Shown: one piece after another, positions 1,472 through 20,591 of the stretch
Numbering within the stretch: the stretch's first letter is position 1
Layout: every line of letters begins with the position of its first letter
Assembly (NCBI GenBank): GCA_048882045.1
Contig: JBHLRZ010000037.1
Location: 1 to 27,585 of the forward strand
Direction of reading: 5' to 3'
Length of the DNA stretch: 27,585 bases
From: Candidatus Thorarchaeota archaeon
GTDB taxonomy: Archaea > Asgardarchaeota > Thorarchaeia > Thorarchaeales > Thorarchaeaceae
Notes under the pieces: generated by a model
Told to the model about the DNA's origin: nothing
The model's input: only the letters and a program-made list of their open reading frames with translations
Database searches by the model: none
Program-made: the position numbers and the translations under genes

Positions 1472-2806
1472 TTAACTTTCATCTTTTGTACTCAGAGTAT
1501 TTTCAAAAAGCTGACTAGCAGTCTTAAACACATCTTCAACACCTTCTCCTGTGATACAAGACGTTTCGATGAAAGCGACTGGGTGCAGTTTGTTTTCTAC
1601 TGCAAACCTATTTGCCAGCTCCTCTGCAAGTTGGAAACCTTCATTGTGGGAAACAGGTTGGTCATCAGAGTCATCACCAGTTTCCTCTCTGAGGTCAATC
1701 TTGTTGGCAACAATGACGATGGGCGGCATTTCTTCAGATGACAATGTTGCTTCTCTGAGCCAGAAGTCAATACTTTCGAAACTCCATCGATCTGAAGCCG
1801 CATATACGATAATGATGACATGAGAATCCATGTAGAATTGCTTTCTTTGAACTTTGGCCTTGACAGCGAGATCAAACGACCAGACTCGCATATCTATTCT
1901 GTGATTGTCTCCCTCGAAGATCTTTCCAAATATATATGAAGAAACTTCTCCATCCTCGTGTTCGATGGGTACGACCTCAGCTTTAGCTTTCAACGTTTCT
2001 TTCCCTACTCCATCTTCACCAAGAAGCAGACACTTGCACTCCACAATGGGTTTGATCTGATGTGTTGGGGTAACCTGTGGTTTTGGTTCATGCTCTTCTA
2101 CAACTTCTTCTTCTTTTTCAATGGTTTCAGCAACAAGCTCGATAACTTCTTCAGCTTCAACAGCCTCTTCGGTTTCTTCAGACTCTTCAACTACCTCTGC
2201 TACGACCTTTGCATCTGCTACACGTGCATATGATTTGTTGGAAGCCACAATCTCTTCCTGACCACTGAGTTTGATACTGATTTTTGGTGGTGGAGGAGTT
2301 GATTCTTCAGTAGGTTCTTCCTCTCCAGTCATAAATGAGTCACTCAGAGATTCCACTACCTGAAGTGCATCTGCAATATCATCAAAGTCATCAGAGGTTA
2401 TTGAACCCTTTCCATCACCGCTTACTCCGTGACTCTCTATGAATTTAGCAGCAGGTTCCTCTTTGGTGGGCAAGATACTCTTCCGTTTCTTCTCTGGTTT
2501 CGTTTCAATTGAGGGTGGGGGAATGTCCTCTTCCAATTCAGGTTCTGGTATAGGTTCGTGGTGTTCCATTAGTTCTTGTTGTAAGACATGTCGAGCCTTC
2601 GGTAGTCCTATCTTGTCTAGTATATCTTCAAGAACTCCAGGAGCAAGTCGCTTTCCAAGATATCTCAAGTATTTTTGAAGCTCCAAGGCAACATCATCGA
2701 AGGACCGCCCTTTTAGAGGGATCTTCTTCTTGACTACTCCTTTGTCACGTACTTCCACAAAAGTTGTAAGTAGTGTCAGTGAGATTGTTGTTCCTGGAAT
2801 AATCAT
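1472..2806 (-). CDS. Rab/Ras-like small-GTPase-domain protein with N-terminal domain and long acidic/Pro-rich linker; G1 and G3 motifs degenerate
   Basis: C-terminal ~190 aa contain KCLLLGEDGVGKET (G1), MRVWSFD (G3 position), IIIVYAASDRWSFESIDFWL, PIVIVANKIDL (G4) and FIETSCITGEGVEDVF (G5). Confidence 0.85.
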   Translation of the reverse strand: MIIPGTTISLTLLTTFVEVRDKGVVKKKIPLKGRSFDDVALELQKYLRYLGKRLAPGVLEDILDKIGLPKARHVLQQELMEHHEPIPEPELEEDIPPPSIETKPEKKRKSILPTKEEPAAKFIESHGVSGDGKGSITSDDFDDIADALQVVESLSDSFMTGEEEPTEESTPPPPKISIKLSGQEEIVASNKSYARVADAKVVAEVVEESEETEEAVEAEEVIELVAETIEKEEEVVEEHEPKPQVTPTHQIKPIVECKCLLLGEDGVGKETLKAKAEVVPIEHEDGEVSSYIFGKIFEGDNHRIDMRVWSFDLAVKAKVQRKQFYMDSHVIIIVYAASDRWSFESIDFWLREATLSSEEMPPIVIVANKIDLREETGDDSDDQPVSHNEGFQLAEELANRFAVENKLHPVAFIETSCITGEGVEDVFKTASQLFENTLSTKDES

Positions 2807-13338: not shown

Positions 13339-13785
13339 TCAAAATACTCTATGACCAAAATCTCGAAGCATATGGACCTCTTTTCTTTCCTCTTTGTAAT
13401 CTGAGGCTGTATACAGATCAAACAAATCAGCACGAGAAACATCGAAGATTGCGTTCAGTGCTCTCAGACCTTTCGTCTCAGCGATTTCGTTTGCCTTTTG
13501 AAGCATTTGAGTTCCTATATCAGATCCTTCCAGTGCATCTTCAATCTCAAAGTGTTTGATGTATCCTACTCTGCCCAATGCTGGATCCTTGGCAACATCA
13601 AGTTTGAGGGCTGCAACAACCATCCGACTAGTAGCTGCAATAACATACATAGTTTCAGTACTAGCTCCAACTGGTGTTGAGGCAGTATGTGCAACGAGGC
13701 GTTGGAAGTTAAGACCTTCCCGAACGTAAAACTCCTCTATTAAAGTGCGGTCTTGTGCCGTGGCAAGCCGAACATCAATTTCCAT
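13339..13785 (-). CDS. GNAT-fold acetyltransferase-like protein
   Basis: IDVRLAT..D start, beta strands YVIAA/VVAAL, GYIKHFEI...EGSDIGTQML (motif A-like), LYTASDY (motif B-like). GGAGG SD upstream. Confidence 0.75.
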   Translation of the reverse strand: MEIDVRLATAQDRTLIEEFYVREGLNFQRLVAHTASTPVGASTETMYVIAATSRMVVAALKLDVAKDPALGRVGYIKHFEIEDALEGSDIGTQMLQKANEIAETKGLRALNAIFDVSRADLFDLYTASDYKEERKEVHMLRDFGHRVF

Positions 13786-13934: not shown

Positions 13935-13964
13935 TTGACAACCAATAACCTATCAGATGAAGTC

Positions 13965-14072
13965 ATGACAGTTAATGATGAAAATCAATCAATCTTGCTT
14001 CCACTTATCCTGTTTGTATGCCTAATCATCTTGCTCCTTGCTCTGGCAATAATATACCTGCCCAGATTGTAG
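13965..14072 (+). CDS. Putative single-pass membrane microprotein (35 aa; 45 aa from TTG 13935)
   Basis: Not in ORF track. Translation MTVNDENQSILLPLILFVCLIILLLALAIIYLPRL; the stop lies 3 nt from the convergent stop of the MinD-like gene. Confidence 0.5.
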   Translation: MTVNDENQSILLPLILFVCLIILLLALAIIYLPRL

Positions 14073-14075
14073 AGA

Positions 14076-14828
14076 TCATTTCATAATTCTGAAGATTTCT
14101 TGCATATTCTTTGTGAATTCACTATCTGGATGTCGCAAAGTCACCACATATCGGCTTCCAGTTTCAATGAGTAGTGGAAGTAGTGGAATGATGGTGGCAA
14201 CACTTGTCTTGAATTTCTGCTCGACCTCTTTAATGATTGCTTTATTCTCATAGATTCCAGGTTTCTTGTTGATTATAATCTTGATTTCTGGGACTTGCAG
14301 TTTACGAGCAACACTCAATGTAGCTGCTGTACCAAGGAGGTCCTGTTCGTCGATCCTGGCAACAACAAAGAGATAGTCCGCAGTCGCCATGGAGAGTAGG
14401 GTTTCTCTATCCAATCCTGGATGCGTGTCAATGATGAGGTAATCTAGGTCTTTCTTCTTAATAACATCGGTGAATCCCTTCTTGAGGTCTCCAACTTCAT
14501 ATCCTTCTCTGAGAATACGTGTGATGTCAGTAGCAGTCATGGAACTTGGAATTAGAAACAGTTTGCCCTGTTTGATACTCAATCTATCAGTCAGATCGAC
14601 ACATGCATCAGTGATGTCGCATGATCCCCTGAGATAGTCATTGAGGGTATACTTCATCTTCTCTCTACCCAGACCAAAAATCACGTGGATTCCCGGTGAA
14701 GCCATATCTGTGTCCATGACTGCTACTCGTTTTCCATCGAGTGCTGCCATTGCTGCTAGATTGGCAGCAATATTGGACTTGCCTGTTCCACCTCTAAAAC
14801 TATGAATTGATACTATCTTACCTGACAT
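14076..14828 (-). CDS. MinD/ParA-family P-loop ATPase
   Basis: KIVSIHSFRGGTGKSNIAANLA (deviant Walker A with Arg), RVAVMDTDMASPG, DYLIIDTHPG (Walker B), IIINK. Confidence 0.92.
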   Translation of the reverse strand: MSGKIVSIHSFRGGTGKSNIAANLAAMAALDGKRVAVMDTDMASPGIHVIFGLGREKMKYTLNDYLRGSCDITDACVDLTDRLSIKQGKLFLIPSSMTATDITRILREGYEVGDLKKGFTDVIKKKDLDYLIIDTHPGLDRETLLSMATADYLFVVARIDEQDLLGTAATLSVARKLQVPEIKIIINKKPGIYENKAIIKEVEQKFKTSVATIIPLLPLLIETGSRYVVTLRHPDSEFTKNMQEIFRIMK

Positions 14829-16095
14829 GACTCAACACCCTTTCTTTTGGCCATTTAACATGATTTCCTAATGTTCGTAGTACTTCAAGTATTCTTGTTG
14901 CTGGAATCCCTGACCGTTCTTCTATCTCCCGGATTGATAGGCTTCCGTTACAGTATTTCCAGATAGAATCTACGACATCAAAGTCCTTTTTCTTAATTCC
15001 TATGACCTCAAGATATGCAACAAATCGCTCATCTCGGTCCTCCATTATTGGATATAATTTTGCGATTCGAACAATTCCTTTCGCAATTAGTTGCGCAAGA
15101 ACCTCATCCGTTTGATCTCGAATAAGACCGCTTATGTCGTGCATCTCTGCAACAGTCGTAACATTGGTAGCTGCATTGACCATTCTCAATGCTCCTGATT
15201 GAATGCTCTCTGAGAACGAAGAGAGAGCCATCTTGGTTTCTCGACGACTATCTTCTGGCGACATGACAAGTTCAACAGCATCATAATCGTAGAATGAGAT
15301 TGGTCCATCGATTTTCTCTGGTACGAATTTTCTTGCATCTGAAAAACTGGTCAACTCAACTAATGATATGAATGGATTCAAGAGTTCGAGGTATGTCTGC
15401 TCTGAAAGTCCCTTCTGGACAACAAATGCACATACTCCTTTCTTGGTAAGTTTCTTGAAAAGAATGGTTGTGTTCTTGTCCAGACTTGAATGCTCTTTCG
15501 TTTCAGCTGTTTCCTTGATTGAAGGGAGGAAATCAAGAACCGCCTCGAGTTCATATGCTCGAAGATTGGAAACAGCTACATGGCCATCATAAGTAACCAT
15601 CCCTCCCCGTAAAATGTCCCGGTTGATTTCGACCTCTGCAAGAACCTGTTTTAATCGGTTCAATTCCTGCGCAGGAAGCAAAACAGTCTTGTACCTTCTA
15701 GCCAGACCTGGAATTCCATCGAACTTTTGAAGAGTAGTTTCAACGACATCCGCAAATGGTTGGAACTTCTTTGAATGAGGAAGATCTTTCCTGATTTCTT
15801 CATAGAACGTAGAAACGAACTGATCCGCTAGGTCTTGAAGAATGACGCGATGAATCTCGCCACTGTCATCCTCTGAAACTAGAGCTATGAAGTAGAGATC
15901 TCCTTTGCGTTCCCAAACGAGCTTGTTCTGGTCAAATGACATGACTGTGATTCTGTCTTGGCTTACCTCTTTGGCAAATGAACCGACTGCAGAAAGAAAT
16001 GCCGCTGCTAACTCATCTAGCTTACGCGTACCACTCACTGAGTAGTGAAACAACAGTATACCAGAGTCACGCAGAACGACTATCTCCTTTACCAA
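14818..16095 (-). CDS. Longin + roadblock/profilin-like insert + tandem winged-helix protein (NPRL2/NPRL3-like architecture)
   Basis: N-terminal longin pattern (IVVLRDSGILLFHY...FLSAVGSFAKEV...LYFIALV...ILQDLADQFVSTF) and two C-terminal wHTH-like units (TTVAEMHDISGL...VLAQLIAKGIV; CNGSLSIREIEERSGIPATRILEVL). TTG start with GGAGG SD; overlaps the MinD-like gene by 11 nt. Confidence 0.75.
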   Translation of the reverse strand: MVKEIVVLRDSGILLFHYSVSGTRKLDELAAAFLSAVGSFAKEVSQDRITVMSFDQNKLVWERKGDLYFIALVSEDDSGEIHRVILQDLADQFVSTFYEEIRKDLPHSKKFQPFADVVETTLQKFDGIPGLARRYKTVLLPAQELNRLKQVLAEVEINRDILRGGMVTYDGHVAVSNLRAYELEAVLDFLPSIKETAETKEHSSLDKNTTILFKKLTKKGVCAFVVQKGLSEQTYLELLNPFISLVELTSFSDARKFVPEKIDGPISFYDYDAVELVMSPEDSRRETKMALSSFSESIQSGALRMVNAATNVTTVAEMHDISGLIRDQTDEVLAQLIAKGIVRIAKLYPIMEDRDERFVAYLEVIGIKKKDFDVVDSIWKYCNGSLSIREIEERSGIPATRILEVLRTLGNHVKWPKERVLSHVR

Positions 16096-16135
16096 CAGGT
16101 GGCCTCCTTCTCACGGCTTTTCTTTCTCAACACTG

Positions 16136-16153
16136 AAAGGATTTAATTCCTTT
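16136..16153. promoter_or_regulatory. Inverted repeat AAAGGA-TTTAAT-TCCTTT; possible TATA/operator or hairpin between the two longin genes
   Basis: 6-bp arms seen directly. The minus strand reads AAAGGAATTAAAT, BRE/TATA-like, about 45 nt upstream of the 16095 start. Confidence 0.3.
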
Positions 16154-16174
16154 GTCAAGAGGACATTGAGGAGA

Positions 16175-17155
16175 TTATTCATTGGATTCTTCCGCAAGAC
16201 CACTGACTTCAATTTGGTTCCACTTTACTTCGTCACCTAACTTCTCAAGAACTTCGTAAAGTCTCTCTGGTACAACTCCCAGCCTCTCACTTACCTCGAC
16301 CAGGGGTCTGGTCCCATTACACAGAGTCTTCGCTCGCTCAAGCAGCTGGTAGTCTTTACTTGGAAGACCGATCAAGTCTAAATATGCGTCAAATCGTGCG
16401 TCGTTCTCCTTTATTATTGGACAGAGTTTTGAGATCTTCAAGAGTCCTCTAATTGCAAGATATTCGACAACTTCTGATATCTCTTCATCAGCCACGCCCA
16501 AATCTCTACTCATATCATGTATCGATGTTTTTCCATCAATCGCGGTAAGGATTCTGTTGCCTGATGCACCTAGGTCCCGATGAAATTCGTCGAGAAATTC
16601 ACCTGACTTTAAGGCTGCATCAAGATATTCCCTTTGCATTTGCGGGATAACGAAAGAGCTGAGACTCGATGTAACTATGAGAATTCCCTCATAATATGTG
16701 AAGACGCTACGCACCTCATTCTCAAAGTCCATGAATACATCCAATACAGGGATGTCCATCCTGAGCTCAGTTTCATATCGTGTAAGAAACCTCTTGCTCA
16801 GCTCACGAAGTACTGCTCTGAGTACATTCTCTGAAGAACCAGTTTCGACTAGAAAGATGAATAGATAGTTTGATCCATATTGTTCGTATAAAAGTTCAGA
16901 ACCCTCGAAAGTAAGACTTTGGATTGATTTTTCGCCAAACTCAGATGCAAAACTTGTGATTGCAGTCAGAAATCCTGACAGTAACTCATCTAATTTCCGT
17001 TCCTCAGATACTGAGTAATGGAAAATTGGGCTTCCTCCTGCTGTCAGAACCATGAATTCTTTCACACCGAGTTTTCCGACCAAGACTGAATCTCCTTGGG
17101 TCTGTCCAGATTCCGAACTGTCTTTAAGATATCGCATGAATCCCGAAACATCCAT
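16175..17155 (-). CDS. Longin + tandem winged-helix protein (NPRL2-like), paralog of the downstream gene
   Basis: FMVLTAGGSPIFHYSVSEERKLDELLSGFLTAITSFASEF longin start; ILTAIDGKTSIHDMSRDLGV...VVEYLAIRGLL and CNGTRPLVEVSERLGV wHTH units. ATG 17155 preferred because 17221 would overlap the divergent gene. Confidence 0.78.
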   Translation of the reverse strand: MDVSGFMRYLKDSSESGQTQGDSVLVGKLGVKEFMVLTAGGSPIFHYSVSEERKLDELLSGFLTAITSFASEFGEKSIQSLTFEGSELLYEQYGSNYLFIFLVETGSSENVLRAVLRELSKRFLTRYETELRMDIPVLDVFMDFENEVRSVFTYYEGILIVTSSLSSFVIPQMQREYLDAALKSGEFLDEFHRDLGASGNRILTAIDGKTSIHDMSRDLGVADEEISEVVEYLAIRGLLKISKLCPIIKENDARFDAYLDLIGLPSKDYQLLERAKTLCNGTRPLVEVSERLGVVPERLYEVLEKLGDEVKWNQIEVSGLAEESNE

Positions 17156-17196
17156 ATCGTTTCCTGATTTCCAAGACTCATCGGTCAGGTGAGAAA

Positions 17197-18747
17197 ATGC
17201 TAGAGTACAGAGAATTTCCATTAAAGACGATGTTCATCTATGTTCTACTTGCTGTTCCTTTGGCGTTCTCTATATTCGTCATTACAGGGCTTCTTTCTGG
17301 AACAATCCTGAACCTCACTGTACTAGAGCAACAGGGACTTCTTGGTCATGGGGCACTAGCAGCAACAATTGCATTACCACTGTCGGGTCTCCTCGTAGAT
17401 AGAATTCGAAAACATGATCTTTCGATGTATCTAGGAGCAGCAATTCCAAGTTTCGTAGTTCTGTTGAGTCTGTTCACAGACATTCCTGGTTTCGCAGAAT
17501 CATTCAATTTGACACTGGCTGTAACAACCTTTGCTTTTCTCACCCTGATGATGATTTCTTGGGCCGCGAGAGTGAACCAAAGTGTGGTTGTAAGATTTCG
17601 TGGAAGGACTGTGGCAACGTTCTTAGCACTAGCTGTTTTCATGTCAGGTGTGTTCTCATACCTCAGAGACGCTGGTATCACCTATGACTCGAATGTTCTC
17701 ATATTTCCAGCACTCATCTCACTTGTTGCAGTCATCATTTCTGCATCATTCAGACCATGGAAGGTCGCACGAGCTTCTCTGACTATTGCTGGAAGTTCAT
17801 TCAAGTACTTCATTCCGACTACCTTCATTATGGGTGCCCATCTGCTATGGTATCTAGTGACAAAGAATGCACTGATTTTGAAAGGTATCGTTTCCCTCAG
17901 TGATGAGGTTGGAGCTGGATTATTTGAGCTAATCCCTTTGATTTTCGCAATAGTGTTAGCTGGTTTAATGGCAGACCGCTTGGGTAGAAAGACTGCATTT
18001 CGATTCATCATCCTCTTGTTGGGCCTCTTGACAATTTTTGGTTCTTCACTTATTGATACGAACAATTTCTCATTCCTTCTCGTATCTGAGAGGTTTGTTG
18101 AGGGGTATCTTCTAGGACTCTGTCTACTCCTCATTTGGCCAGAGCTTGGATCTGTCAAGACCAAGGGTTTTCGACTTTCACTTTACTGGTTCTTCTTCCT
18201 AGGATACATGACTCTCTTCTGGGCATTGGATATCAGGGTGGAGTTGTTTGGCATAACCTTTGCCCCACCTGATTGGCTCTGGACAGTTGGTGGACAGACT
18301 GCTATTGTTCTCTCACTCGGAGCTCTATATCTCACGGGTCCACTTCCAACTACACTGGGTCGTGAAATTGAGATGGAGGATCTGGATTTTGATTTTGATG
18401 AACGCGAAGTGAAAAGGACCGTGGATGCATTTGTTGGGCGAGATGACTTTGATTCTATTCGGAGTCAGTTAGACATTATCGACGCTGGGACGGATCTCAG
18501 TGATAGTGAGATGAATGCAATCCTAGGTGATGAGTTAAAGGACATGCTCCCCTTACGTCGTGTACCCGGTATTGGTGGAAGTCTAGAGAAAAAGCTGAGT
18601 GCGGCGGGGTATGAGTCCGCCGCTCAGTTGGCTGGCGAGTCAGCTCAACGCCTTTCCCAGAAGATTAATGGGCTGAGTGTCGCTGGCGCTGAGAAGATTC
18701 TCAAGAGTGCGCGTAAAGTCGTAAAAAAGACAGTCAAGAAGAAGTAG
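17197..18747 (+). CDS. MFS-like transporter fused to acidic linker and C-terminal helix-hairpin-helix domain
   Basis: About 12 TM with MFS motif A in both halves (GLLVDRIRK, GLMADRLGRK). C-terminus LRRVPGIGGSLEKKLSAAGYES...INGLSVAGAEKIL is a RadA-N/HhH_5-like pattern. AGGTGA SD. Confidence 0.8.
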   Translation: MLEYREFPLKTMFIYVLLAVPLAFSIFVITGLLSGTILNLTVLEQQGLLGHGALAATIALPLSGLLVDRIRKHDLSMYLGAAIPSFVVLLSLFTDIPGFAESFNLTLAVTTFAFLTLMMISWAARVNQSVVVRFRGRTVATFLALAVFMSGVFSYLRDAGITYDSNVLIFPALISLVAVIISASFRPWKVARASLTIAGSSFKYFIPTTFIMGAHLLWYLVTKNALILKGIVSLSDEVGAGLFELIPLIFAIVLAGLMADRLGRKTAFRFIILLLGLLTIFGSSLIDTNNFSFLLVSERFVEGYLLGLCLLLIWPELGSVKTKGFRLSLYWFFFLGYMTLFWALDIRVELFGITFAPPDWLWTVGGQTAIVLSLGALYLTGPLPTTLGREIEMEDLDFDFDEREVKRTVDAFVGRDDFDSIRSQLDIIDAGTDLSDSEMNAILGDELKDMLPLRRVPGIGGSLEKKLSAAGYESAAQLAGESAQRLSQKINGLSVAGAEKILKSARKVVKKTVKKK

Positions 18748-18753
18748 ATCGAA

Positions 18754-19620
18754 CTACTTCGGCTTGTCCATCAAGGCTGTCTTCGTCTTCACTTTGCCCT
18801 TTGAAACGTGTGGATTCCGGAGGACTGAATCTTCGGCCTTCTCAAGCTCTCTGATTTCATCTGAGAGATTCGCTGCAACTCTCATCATTTCATGACCAGC
18901 AGCTACAAGTGGTATGTAGTCTTCTGCCTCTTTTGTCTTGAAGCACCCTTCTGATGTAATGTCCGCCACAGCTTCGGCAATAGCTAATGCTGCAAGGGCT
19001 TTAACTCTCGCATATGGATTCTTGAAGTAACCACATTTCACAGCTTTCTTGGCAGTCAACTTCAATTGAGGCATTTCAGGTGTTTCACCAGCTTGAAAAG
19101 CTGCAACAATCTTGTCAAGCTCATTCTGGATGGCTCGCATCACACCTGTGACTGCCAAGACCTTGATTGCATCAGCATTGAACAGGGTCATCTCAGTGGG
19201 ATCGAGAAACTCCTTCTTGGCACCAATCATCGAGTCTGCAGGAATTACAATGAATCCCTGCCCTTCAAGAACATGAGGTTTCTTCTTCCCTTCTTCATTC
19301 TTCTTATAGAATGCCTTTTCAGCTGGACCGTCAGATATCGCCACTGTTGGAATCTTTGCTTTTGCCAACATCTCCCTCGCCTTTGAAGGGCCTGGAAGGG
19401 CTGCATTCGGGCTTACAATGATTGCAAAATGAGGTTTCCAGGCAATCAATGACTCAACAGGCCCTGCTGCTGACTCTTCGTCCATCTTTGCTCCGCTTGT
19501 GAAAGCTCGAACGTGTATATCGTCTCTTTCTGCTCGTTCATCAAACATAAGGTCAAGAAGAGGTGCAGAAGCAATCGCACCGAGTTTGATTACTCCTACA
19601 TTTATTGTAGTAACTGACAT
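18754..19620 (-). CDS. mtd: F420-dependent methylene-tetrahydromethanopterin dehydrogenase
   Basis: VGVIKLGAI, LDLMFDERAERDDI.VR..TSGAKM, SPNAALPGP..ARE, DSMIGAKKEFLDPTEM.LFNAD..KVLA.TG, F.NPYAR.KA, AAGHEMMR, RELEKA.D.V.R.PH. Confidence 0.96.
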   Translation of the reverse strand: MSVTTINVGVIKLGAIASAPLLDLMFDERAERDDIHVRAFTSGAKMDEESAAGPVESLIAWKPHFAIIVSPNAALPGPSKAREMLAKAKIPTVAISDGPAEKAFYKKNEEGKKKPHVLEGQGFIVIPADSMIGAKKEFLDPTEMTLFNADAIKVLAVTGVMRAIQNELDKIVAAFQAGETPEMPQLKLTAKKAVKCGYFKNPYARVKALAALAIAEAVADITSEGCFKTKEAEDYIPLVAAGHEMMRVAANLSDEIRELEKAEDSVLRNPHVSKGKVKTKTALMDKPK

Positions 19621-19676: not shown

Positions 19677-20591
19677 TCACTCTTTTGGATAATATGCCAG
19701 ACCTGTGCCAGCCAGGAGGTCTGCTCCTCTTAGATGTTTATTACAGGTGGCACACCTGAATACGATCTTTGGGTCATTAGAAGCTGTTCCACAATTGTTG
19801 CAAAGAGGTTCAACATCTATTATAGATAGGTTTCCTACCTTTACTGGTTCCTTGCAATTCAGACAAGTGACTTCAGCAATATCATCAGCCATCACAGCAT
19901 GGAATTGATTGCTACACTTTGGACAAAAGAGAGTGTATACTTTGTGAATATCAGTTGACTCACAATTCGGACAAAGTAACTCAATGGTTAAATCGGAATC
20001 CCCGCATTGTCTACATTCCACACGTCGTCCGTAGGTACGTGATTCGAGTAGATCCTCATCTTCAAGGTCCTTTAACATCCTCACGACTTCAGCATCATCA
20101 GATCCAAAGTAATTACGGGCATCTGGATATCTAACTGAAGCACGAAGTACATGTTTTGGTCTGATCGCTACTACTCTATTGGAAGTGATATCCTCAACAA
20201 GTTTCTTCACTGAGGGATTTGTGAGTAGTGCAGCTCCACTTGTTTCATCTATCAGCTCCTTGAGGAGCTCAAAAGCTCTTTGAAGCTCATTGTCCCATTT
20301 GTCACTATCGAAATCGATATACTTGACTAGTCGAAGTAGATTACGTTCAATTACTGTAGGATTTTCACCTTCCTCAAGGTGAATCGCTATGCAGTTTGGC
20401 ACTTTCATATACGAGATAAACAAACCTCTCTGTAACTTTGAATATCCGATTTCTGCTTCCCTATTCACACCGTGTCCCATGAAAATGAGTAATGCTTCTT
20501 CTCCTGTCAAAGGATCAGTTTCTGGAAATGAACGTCCTACTGAGGGTCCGAGGTTATCGTCCCACCAAATCGAATGAATCGCTTTTGGCAC
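19677..20591 (-). CDS. uDENN/longin-like N-terminal domain fused to wHTH + multi-zinc-ribbon module (TackOD1-like)
   Basis: N-terminus AIHSIWWDDNLGPSVGRSFPE has the aromatic-D-x3-GP-x5-P pattern; RYP...VRMLKDLEDEDLLE is wHTH-like; six CxxC pairs (CRQC, CPNC, CPKC, CLNC, CNNC, CATC). Confidence 0.7.
   Translation of the reverse strand: MPKAIHSIWWDDNLGPSVGRSFPETDPLTGEEALLIFMGHGVNREAEIGYSKLQRGLFISYMKVPNCIAIHLEEGENPTVIERNLLRLVKYIDFDSDKWDNELQRAFELLKELIDETSGAALLTNPSVKKLVEDITSNRVVAIRPKHVLRASVRYPDARNYFGSDDAEVVRMLKDLEDEDLLESRTYGRRVECRQCGDSDLTIELLCPNCESTDIHKVYTLFCPKCSNQFHAVMADDIAEVTCLNCKEPVKVGNLSIIDVEPLCNNCGTASNDPKIVFRCATCNKHLRGADLLAGTGLAYYPKE

Follow-up and report, generated by a model that had tools for sequence, protein, structure and literature searches.

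What does a pair of proteins laid out like the eukaryotic NPRL2 and NPRL3 do in an archaeon, when the gene kept beside them encodes an ATPase of the ParA/MinD class rather than a small GTPase? The question is posed by a three-gene operon in a 27,585-nucleotide (nt) stretch of DNA from Candidatus Thorarchaeota archaeon (GenBank assembly GCA_048882045.1, contig JBHLRZ010000037.1, positions 1 to 27,585 of the forward strand), referred to throughout as the window. Two genes, here called A and B, are followed head to tail on the minus strand by the ATPase gene, the ATG of which overlaps the stop codon of B by 11 nt (ATGTCAGGTAA). An initial annotation of this DNA had described three co-oriented genes, two of them paralogous, with an 11-nt overlap between the downstream paralogue and the ATPase start, and had proposed a GATOR1-like pair of longin and winged-helix proteins encoded with a MinD/ParA ATPase. 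Its account of the gene arrangement and of the overlap holds, and the paralogy extends over both ends of the proteins, with 31% identity between the N-terminal domains of A and B (E 6e-26) and 33% between their C-terminal parts (E 2e-23), separated by an insert of ~110 amino acids (aa) in B relative to A. The nature of the two proteins and of their ATPase proves to be more particular than that proposal, and points to a module in which longin proteins may serve a client other than a small GTPase.

The link between these genes is real, old and stably inherited. Searches took in a further 300 genomes of the phylum, with each species represented once, and found B in 64 of the 76 genomes of the window's own family (f1), in the only genome of a sister family, f2, and in 18 of 19 genomes of family f12, whose members are labelled ‘Promethearchaeota’ or ‘Hodarchaeota’; no B orthologue was found in the other 27 families, a few of which gave weak partial matches (E 1e-9 to 1e-11). 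Orthologues of the ATPase are distributed alike (63/76 in f1, 1/1 in f2, 18/19 in f12 and two single genomes among the other 27 families). Wherever the contig extends far enough, B is almost always followed immediately by the ATPase gene, mostly with an overlap of 4-8 nt, the exceptions being an insertion in G042, another in G100 and splits caused by contig ends. The gene inserted in G042 (L032, 4087-5040) was judged by eye to be ADP-ribosylglycohydrolase-like and was seen in one genus, and that in G100 encodes 883 aa on the other strand. The ATPase may be accompanied by a single paralogue: B occurs without A in f12 and f2, and A is followed directly by the ATPase, without B, in several genomes of the genus g25. 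Searches for B, the ATPase and the membrane protein encoded divergently from A were all empty in G144 (97% complete) and G151 (92% complete). Different genera share the gene order Mtd, membrane protein, A, B, ATPase, Mtd being F420-dependent methylene-tetrahydromethanopterin dehydrogenase, encoded next to the membrane protein gene; because Mtd, beyond the membrane protein, is also syntenic in many genera, the locus is stable. Across f1, identity to the window's proteins is 78-86% for the ATPase, 42-62% for Mtd and 37-64% for B. The survey of Asgard gene neighbourhoods for which the initial annotation had called thus finds the link between B and the ATPase strongly conserved, and its contention that the gene partner is an ATPase rather than a small GTPase stands, with no small GTPase seen as a conserved neighbour in the loci read.

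The ATPase itself matches AAA_31, ParA and CbiA in Pfam, and its catalytic motifs (GKS, DTD and the Walker B Asp) are intact. Its best NCBIfam model is minD_arch, at 79.7 bits against a cut-off of 201.75, and minD_bact reaches 58 bits against a cut-off of 212.9. Among 22 orthologues down to 48% identity, HSFRGGTGKSN, DTDxxSPG, DTHPG and C70 are invariant. The Arg in the first of these motifs occupies the position of the MinD/ParA signature Lys; D39-T-D41-x-x-S44-P45-G46, equally invariant, places a PG after the sensor-1 DxD; and the invariant S10 is a Ser at the first Walker A position. MinD proper is ruled out by scores far below both cut-offs, by the Arg in place of the signature Lys and by the lack of MinC and MinE in the window, where a Pfam scan of the larger open reading frames (ORFs) found no MinC, MinE or ParB, as the initial annotation had noted. 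The label ‘MinD/ParA ATPase’ was therefore right as to class, but the protein is, by its motifs, a ConB2-type ParA rather than a MinD. A MinD-type C-terminal amphipathic helix was also sought, and the last 11 residues, with a moderate hydrophobic moment and acidic residues among them, offer no convincing membrane tail. The protein was also weighed as a possible carrier of Fe-S clusters or metal, like Mrp/NBP35 or CooC, an idea that was set aside: it has no CxxC, and its invariant residues include a single Cys (C70) and a single His, the latter in DTHPG.

Proteins A and B were modelled with AlphaFold2 on family alignments, at a mean predicted local distance difference test score (pLDDT) of 81 for A and 79 for B. 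In the model of A a longin domain spans residues 8-118, and a helix at 163-182 stands ahead of a winged helix at 189-225; B is predicted to have the same build with a roadblock-like domain added. This additional domain corresponds to the insert of B (~137-250), which has the strand and helix order of the roadblock type and contains all of the family-invariant residues E156, R163, G171, S176 and E182, and Robl_LC7 is matched in 2 of 18 B-family members (2.9e-5). As folds, the longin domains of both proteins align with the classical longins VAMP7 and Sec22b at VIA-align Z scores of 14.6-14.8 over ~120 residues, with the SRX domain of the signal recognition particle (SRP) receptor, which is among the best fold matches, at Z 13-14, and with Fuzzy at Z 12-14. 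By sequence, they belong to the Fuz/Mon1/HPS1 family: A scores 27.3 bits against Pfam Fuz_longin_1 (PF19036; cut-off 26.1), a model matched at E <= 1 in 19/20 A-family and 14/18 B-family members. The C-terminal winged helices match TrmB, HTH_47 and, beneath its cut-off, HTH_NPRL3. TrmB reaches 30.5 bits in B (cut-off 25.6) and recurs in 16/18 B-family and 19/20 A-family members; the sub-cut-off HTH_NPRL3 matches are found in 7/18 B-family members (best E 1.8e-4) and in 1/20 members of the A alignment. In A the winged helices have an acidic isoelectric point (pI 4.7-4.8), and only the last one of B is near neutral (pI 7.9), values that seem to fit protein-binding winged helices, such as the C-terminal domains of NPRL2/3, better than DNA binding. 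A tree of both families, from a quick search and with long branches, groups A weakly with single-copy B-like proteins of other families (SH-like approximate likelihood ratio test, SH-aLRT, 83-91).

How far these proteins resemble NPRL2 and NPRL3 depends on whether structure or sequence is consulted. Every one of the ten best Foldseek matches of A in the PDB is a chain of human NPRL2/NPRL3 or yeast Npr2/Npr3, in alignments of 344-466 columns (E 2e-7 to 5e-6), and A aligns with the NPRL3 chain 7t3b_C over 266 residues at a VIA-align Z of 10.6, with a root-mean-square deviation (rmsd) of 11.9 that is poor because the domains are oriented differently. B retrieves Mon1, Ccz1, Fuzzy, Inturned and HPS1/4 first (E 2e-8 onward) and GATOR1 chains after them; residues 1-250 of B superpose on the first two domains (LD1-LD2) of Fuzzy at Z 14.0 over 207 residues, and also on Ccz1/Mon1 and HPS, with an overall range of Z 12-14 over ~205-220 residues. 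In sequence, A and B match neither Pfam NPR2 nor NPR3 at E <= 1, both of these are missing from the 25 families matched most often by their relatives, and profiles of the A and B families run against all PDB chain sequences list no NPRL2/NPRL3 chain at E <= 10, returning chance-level matches only (a CENP-N/MBP chimera at 0.022, CheF at 0.15 and Robl at 0.49). Since the fold matches come without an NPR2/NPR3 sequence signature, the likeness is one of layout and fold rather than of demonstrated family membership and, on the models, looks good for A and mixed for B. The GATOR1-like reading of the initial annotation thus survives in the architecture, a longin plus two C-terminal winged helices, and in what Foldseek retrieves with A, whilst the type of the longin and the lack of an NPR2/NPR3 match tell against it in sequence, where the profiles reach no NPRL chain, and the first two domains of B lie nearer to LD1-LD2 of the tri-longin Rab exchange-factor subunits than to NPRL proteins.

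An operon of this kind has a precedent. In October 2026, Li, Burroughs and Aravind described, as a computational prediction, a mainly archaeal ‘ParA-wHTH system’ (wHTH, winged helix-turn-helix) within the ConB2 assemblage of ParA proteins (bioRxiv 10.64898/2026.10.19.760177). ConB2 is marked by an Arg for the usual Lys of the deviant Walker A motif and by PG after the sensor-1 DxD, its parent clade PriB2 is marked by a Ser at the first Walker A position, and in the partner proteins an elongated helix precedes the winged helix, some having a profilin-longin-like domain fused on (bioRxiv 10.64898/2026.10.19.760177). All three diagnostic features are present in the operon's ATPase, and the models of A and B contain both the winged helix behind an elongated helix and the longin fusion; because the ATPase bears the ConB2 marks and its partners fit the description, the operon is filed here, by motifs and described architecture, as a Thorarchaeal member of the ParA-wHTH kind. 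An ‘NPRL2-like’ family of the same layout had been reported by Liu et al. in 2020 from most Thor metagenome-assembled genomes (MAGs), in a preprint whose text mentions no ATPase (bioRxiv 10.1101/2020.10.19.343400). Our literature search found no paper other than bioRxiv 10.64898/2026.10.19.760177 linking Asgard longin proteins to MinD/ParA. With ParA-wHTH systems containing profilin/longin-like fusions (bioRxiv 10.64898/2026.10.19.760177) and Thor NPRL2-like proteins (bioRxiv 10.1101/2020.10.19.343400) already described, the idea of joining longin proteins to a SIMIBI ATPase is not new. What is new is the corrected start of A (see below), the ConB2 motif match of the ATPase, the membrane-protein neighbour and a housekeeping-like conservation that calls the immune role predicted for such systems into question.

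Coupling, co-distribution and joint absence mark A and B as functional partners of the ATPase, and its very high conservation, together with stable vertical inheritance, suggests a cell-biological switch for membrane positioning or signalling rather than an arms-race defence. Longin and roadblock folds regulate NTPases in several well-known pairs, among them MglB-MglA, Ragulator-Rag, Mon1-Ccz1-Rab7 and NPRL2-RagA. We therefore favour, at somewhat less than an even chance, a ParA-wHTH-type module in which an A/B longin(-roadblock) platform controls or reads out a ConB2-type ATPase at the membrane. The ATPase would be made together with its winged-helix partners by co-transcription and translational coupling; A and B would dimerise by way of their longin domains, in the manner of other longin and roadblock proteins, to give a platform that binds the ATP-bound ATPase dimer and controls or reads out its ATP cycle, possibly by altering the ATPase rate in the MinE/ParB-like role that the initial annotation proposed; and where only one paralogue is present, B alone or A alone might serve. 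Such a platform would play for a SIMIBI-class ATPase approximately the role that longin/roadblock platforms play for small GTPases, and the membrane protein, with its cytoplasmic helix-hairpin-helix (HhH) tail, would be the likely site of action or cargo. Profilin-longin-like domains are found in association with TRAFAC as well as SIMIBI NTPases, and ParA proteins displace MglA beside MglB in some bacteria (bioRxiv 10.64898/2026.10.19.760177).

Several points weigh against this reading. Contact between A/B and the ATPase, and an effect of that contact on ATP hydrolysis, are steps that we infer, and a complex prediction of A, B and the ATPase from full-length chains and alignments (ipSAE 0.00) counts neither for nor against binding. 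Because the winged helices match DNA-binding families (for TrmB, above the cut-off in B), the target of A and B could be DNA and not the ATPase. The genes are not inseparable, since in two genomes (G042 and G100) another gene sits between B and the ATPase. Furthermore, the ATPase orthogroup (~50% identity, with RGGTGKS and DTHPG) has quite different neighbours in Hel-labelled MAGs, where it follows a ~520-aa helical (TPR-like) protein and a helical protein of 107-137 aa (L034 3086-5756, L028 2411-5657), so that longin proteins are not its only possible partners. In G249 the ATPase is followed by a gene whose product looks like a winged-helix protein with a long N-terminal helix; neither this product nor the ~110-aa helical protein of the Hel-type loci showed similarity to the A profile in hhalign (probability < 1%). 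Lastly, those who defined the ParA-wHTH system predict for it an immune role, in which it intercepts the DNA of invaders (bioRxiv 10.64898/2026.10.19.760177).

Applied to this operon, that prediction would have the winged helices recognise invading DNA, the ParA ATPase coat or intercept it, and the longin-type domains multimerise the complex, as a defence against selfish elements. The ConB2 marks of the ATPase (Walker A Arg, PG after sensor-1 and Walker A Ser) and the agreement of the architecture with the published description speak for such a system, as do the DNA-binding type of the HhH domain in the neighbouring membrane protein and weak PADLOC matches of the ATPase to PDC-M28B (E 1e-7, at the P-loop end only). 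We nevertheless regard it as unlikely here, given that the operon is inherited vertically at a fixed locus beside Mtd across the whole family, that its ATPase, with conservation far beyond that of Mtd, an enzyme of core metabolism, is not fast-evolving, that no defence genes were recognised near it, and that its winged helices, save the last one of B, are acidic. Rapid evolution, patchy distribution and a defence neighbourhood, the traits of a conflict system, are thus missing from this operon, which bears on the role predicted for ParA-wHTH systems and not on homology to them.

The same winged helices admit a reading in which A and B are ligand-sensing transcription factors, the longin being the sensor and the winged helix the DNA binder, for the membrane-protein gene and their own operon, with the ATPase accessory or unrelated. 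A TrmB-type match above the Pfam cut-off in B, and recurrent in both families, is what would be expected, the layout is that of a classical divergent regulator/transporter pair, and a conserved 13-nt motif (TATGGATGTTTCG) lies in the intergenic region common to both transcription units. That motif, however, is not palindromic, the winged helices are acidic and arranged as a C-terminal tandem like the protein-binding C-terminal domains of NPRL2/3, and the translational coupling, co-distribution and joint absence with the ATPase would go unexplained, all of which renders this reading distinctly unlikely. Highly improbable, in our view, is a true proto-GATOR1, in which A and B form a longin heterodimer that is a GTPase-activating protein (GAP), or a guanine nucleotide exchange factor (GEF), for a Rag/Arf/Rab-like small GTPase encoded elsewhere and the ATPase is only a neighbour. 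It accords with the fold and layout, nearest to NPRL2/NPRL3 for A and to Rab GEF subunits for B, and with the many small GTPases of Asgard genomes, one of which is encoded in this window (Table 1), and it is how the Thor NPRL2-like proteins are read in the 2020 preprint (bioRxiv 10.1101/2020.10.19.343400); yet the conserved and coupled partner is the ATPase, none of the loci read has a small GTPase as conserved neighbour, and in sequence both an NPR2/NPR3 Pfam signature and a profile match to the NPRL chains of the PDB are wanting.

Table 1. Features of the window discussed in the text (positions count from the first nucleotide of the window).
Feature	Position	Strand	Description
Gene A	16175..17083	-	302 aa; longin, helical linker and two winged helices, in an NPRL2/NPRL3-like layout
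Gene B	14818..16095	-	425-aa paralogue of A; longin (1-~125), roadblock-like domain (~137-250) and two winged helices (~296-415), as predicted
ParA/MinD-class ATPase, ConB2 type	14076..14828	-	250 aa; ATG start
Divergent intergenic region	17084..17196	.	113 nt; contains the likely promoter of the A-B-ATPase operon, from a 12-genome alignment
Polytopic membrane protein	17197..18747	+	divergent from the operon; DRLGRK resembling motif A of the major facilitator superfamily, acidic linker, C-terminal HhH, basic tail
Mtd	18754..19620	-	Pfam E 3e-109
TackOD1 protein	19677..20591	-	304 aa; C-terminal TackOD1 output domain (Pfam E 3e-18)
Downstream protein	13339..13785	-	148 aa, downstream of the ATPase; no Pfam match; recurs downstream in G042
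Small ORF	13935..14072	+	45 aa, convergent to the ATPase stop; one strongly hydrophobic helix
GTPase-domain protein	1472..2806	-	444 aa; long N-terminal region, then a Ras-family GTPase domain at the C-terminus (Pfam E 2e-16)

The limits of gene A call for comment. Its enclosing ORF spans 16175..17221, and the start is assigned to a TTG at 17083-17081 that is preceded 8 nt upstream by GGAG. Because TTG and GGAG are both kept in an alignment of 12 related genomes, because the stretch 5' of the TTG contains stop codons in many orthologues, and because annotated homologues of A start MVGKLGV, the protein is taken to be 302 aa long, and the upper bound at 17155 given by the initial annotation lies ~70 nt too far. 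B likewise starts at a TTG, preceded by GGAGG. Within the divergent intergenic region, the TATA-like GCGATATCTTAAAGAC (17120-17135), ~35 nt 5' of the TTG of A, is kept across the same 12 genomes, as is the 13-mer at 17144-17156 mentioned above, the flanks of which differ in sequence and length; this motif may act as an operator or promoter element, or else mark where a tiny upstream ORF begins (ATG GAT GTT TCG).

On the far side of this region, the polytopic membrane protein is a conserved neighbour that shares the phyletic profile of the operon: it is present in 65 of the 76 f1 genomes, in the single f2 genome (on another contig), in 8 of 19 f12 genomes at the threshold used and in none of the other 27 families, and its orthologues adjoin A or, in f12, B. 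Pfam recognises HHH_5 only. Elsewhere in the window, a longin-like N-terminus was suggested by the initial annotation for the TackOD1 protein; this putative domain would fit published fusions of NPRL2-like longins with two-component domains. The GTPase-domain gene is 11 kb away from the operon and did not emerge as one of its conserved neighbours.

In eukaryotes, longin/roadblock platforms hold a central place in the control of small GTPases for trafficking and nutrient signalling, and their forerunners have been sought in Asgard archaea. A pair with the layout of NPRL2/NPRL3 whose long-standing evolutionary ties are to a ParA-class ATPase and a membrane protein, and not to a GTPase, changes the first partner to be considered for such ‘eukaryote-like’ proteins. 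In its most far-reaching form, which we hold to be very doubtful, the Thorarchaeial module would be a housekeeping, membrane-associated nucleotide switch in which a platform resembling GATOR1 or Mon1-Ccz1 controls a SIMIBI ATPase and is wired to a transporter-like membrane protein, much as the regulators of Rag are wired to lysosomal amino-acid transporters. If true, the eukaryotic longin GAP/GEF platforms would have in it an archaeal relative, or a precursor, that serves another client NTPase. The operon and its membrane-protein neighbour offer a tractable system of three or four proteins for asking whether longin platforms drive SIMIBI ATPases, and their housekeeping-like conservation is a test of the recent prediction that ParA-wHTH systems are immune.

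Among known systems, MinD-MinE, ParA-ParB and McdA-McdB share with the operon a dimerising ATPase of the ParA/MinD class encoded beside few partner proteins. Partners of the MinE, ParB and McdB type bind their ATPase and set its cycle, and McdA of some cyanobacteria likewise has no signature Lys. The partners here, however, have longin/roadblock folds, unlike MinE, ParB or McdB, and the ATPase differs from MinD in showing no clear C-terminal membrane-targeting helix. NPRL2-NPRL3 (yeast Npr2-Npr3, the core of GATOR1/SEACIT) resemble A and B in being a pair of paralogues with an N-terminal longin, a helical region and C-terminal winged helices; they differ in their NPR2/NPR3 Pfam signature, which A and B lack, the longin of the latter being by sequence of Fuz/Mon1 type, and in the partner kept with them, a SIMIBI ATPase for A and B and not a Rag GTPase. 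GATOR1 differs further, no DEPDC5-like gene having been seen in the operon or its flanks. With Mon1-Ccz1, Fuzzy-Inturned and HPS1-HPS4, A and B have in common a longin that falls in Pfam Fuz_longin_1 and, in the model of B, a second alpha/beta domain that superposes together with the longin on LD1-LD2, but those GEF subunits comprise three longin/roadblock-type domains where A has one and B two, they are without the two winged helices in which A and B both end, and the client of A and B is presumably the ATPase.

Closer to the prokaryotic side, MglA-MglB offers a roadblock dimer, MglB, that regulates an NTPase, although MglB acts on a Ras-like GTPase and is without winged helices. SR-alpha carries a longin-fold domain, SRX, fused with a SIMIBI NTPase, and the longins of A and B both count SRX among their best fold matches; SRX binds SR-beta, however, and not its own SIMIBI domain, and winged helices are again absent. 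The ParA-wHTH system shares with the operon an ATPase with Arg in Walker A and PG after sensor-1, and winged-helix partners encoded next to it. Within that kind the Thorarchaeal operon is set apart by its two partner proteins, paralogues that both have two winged helices and of which one has a roadblock-like domain besides, by a conserved divergent membrane protein with an HhH tail and, unlike the conflict role predicted for such systems, by vertical inheritance and a highly conserved ATPase.

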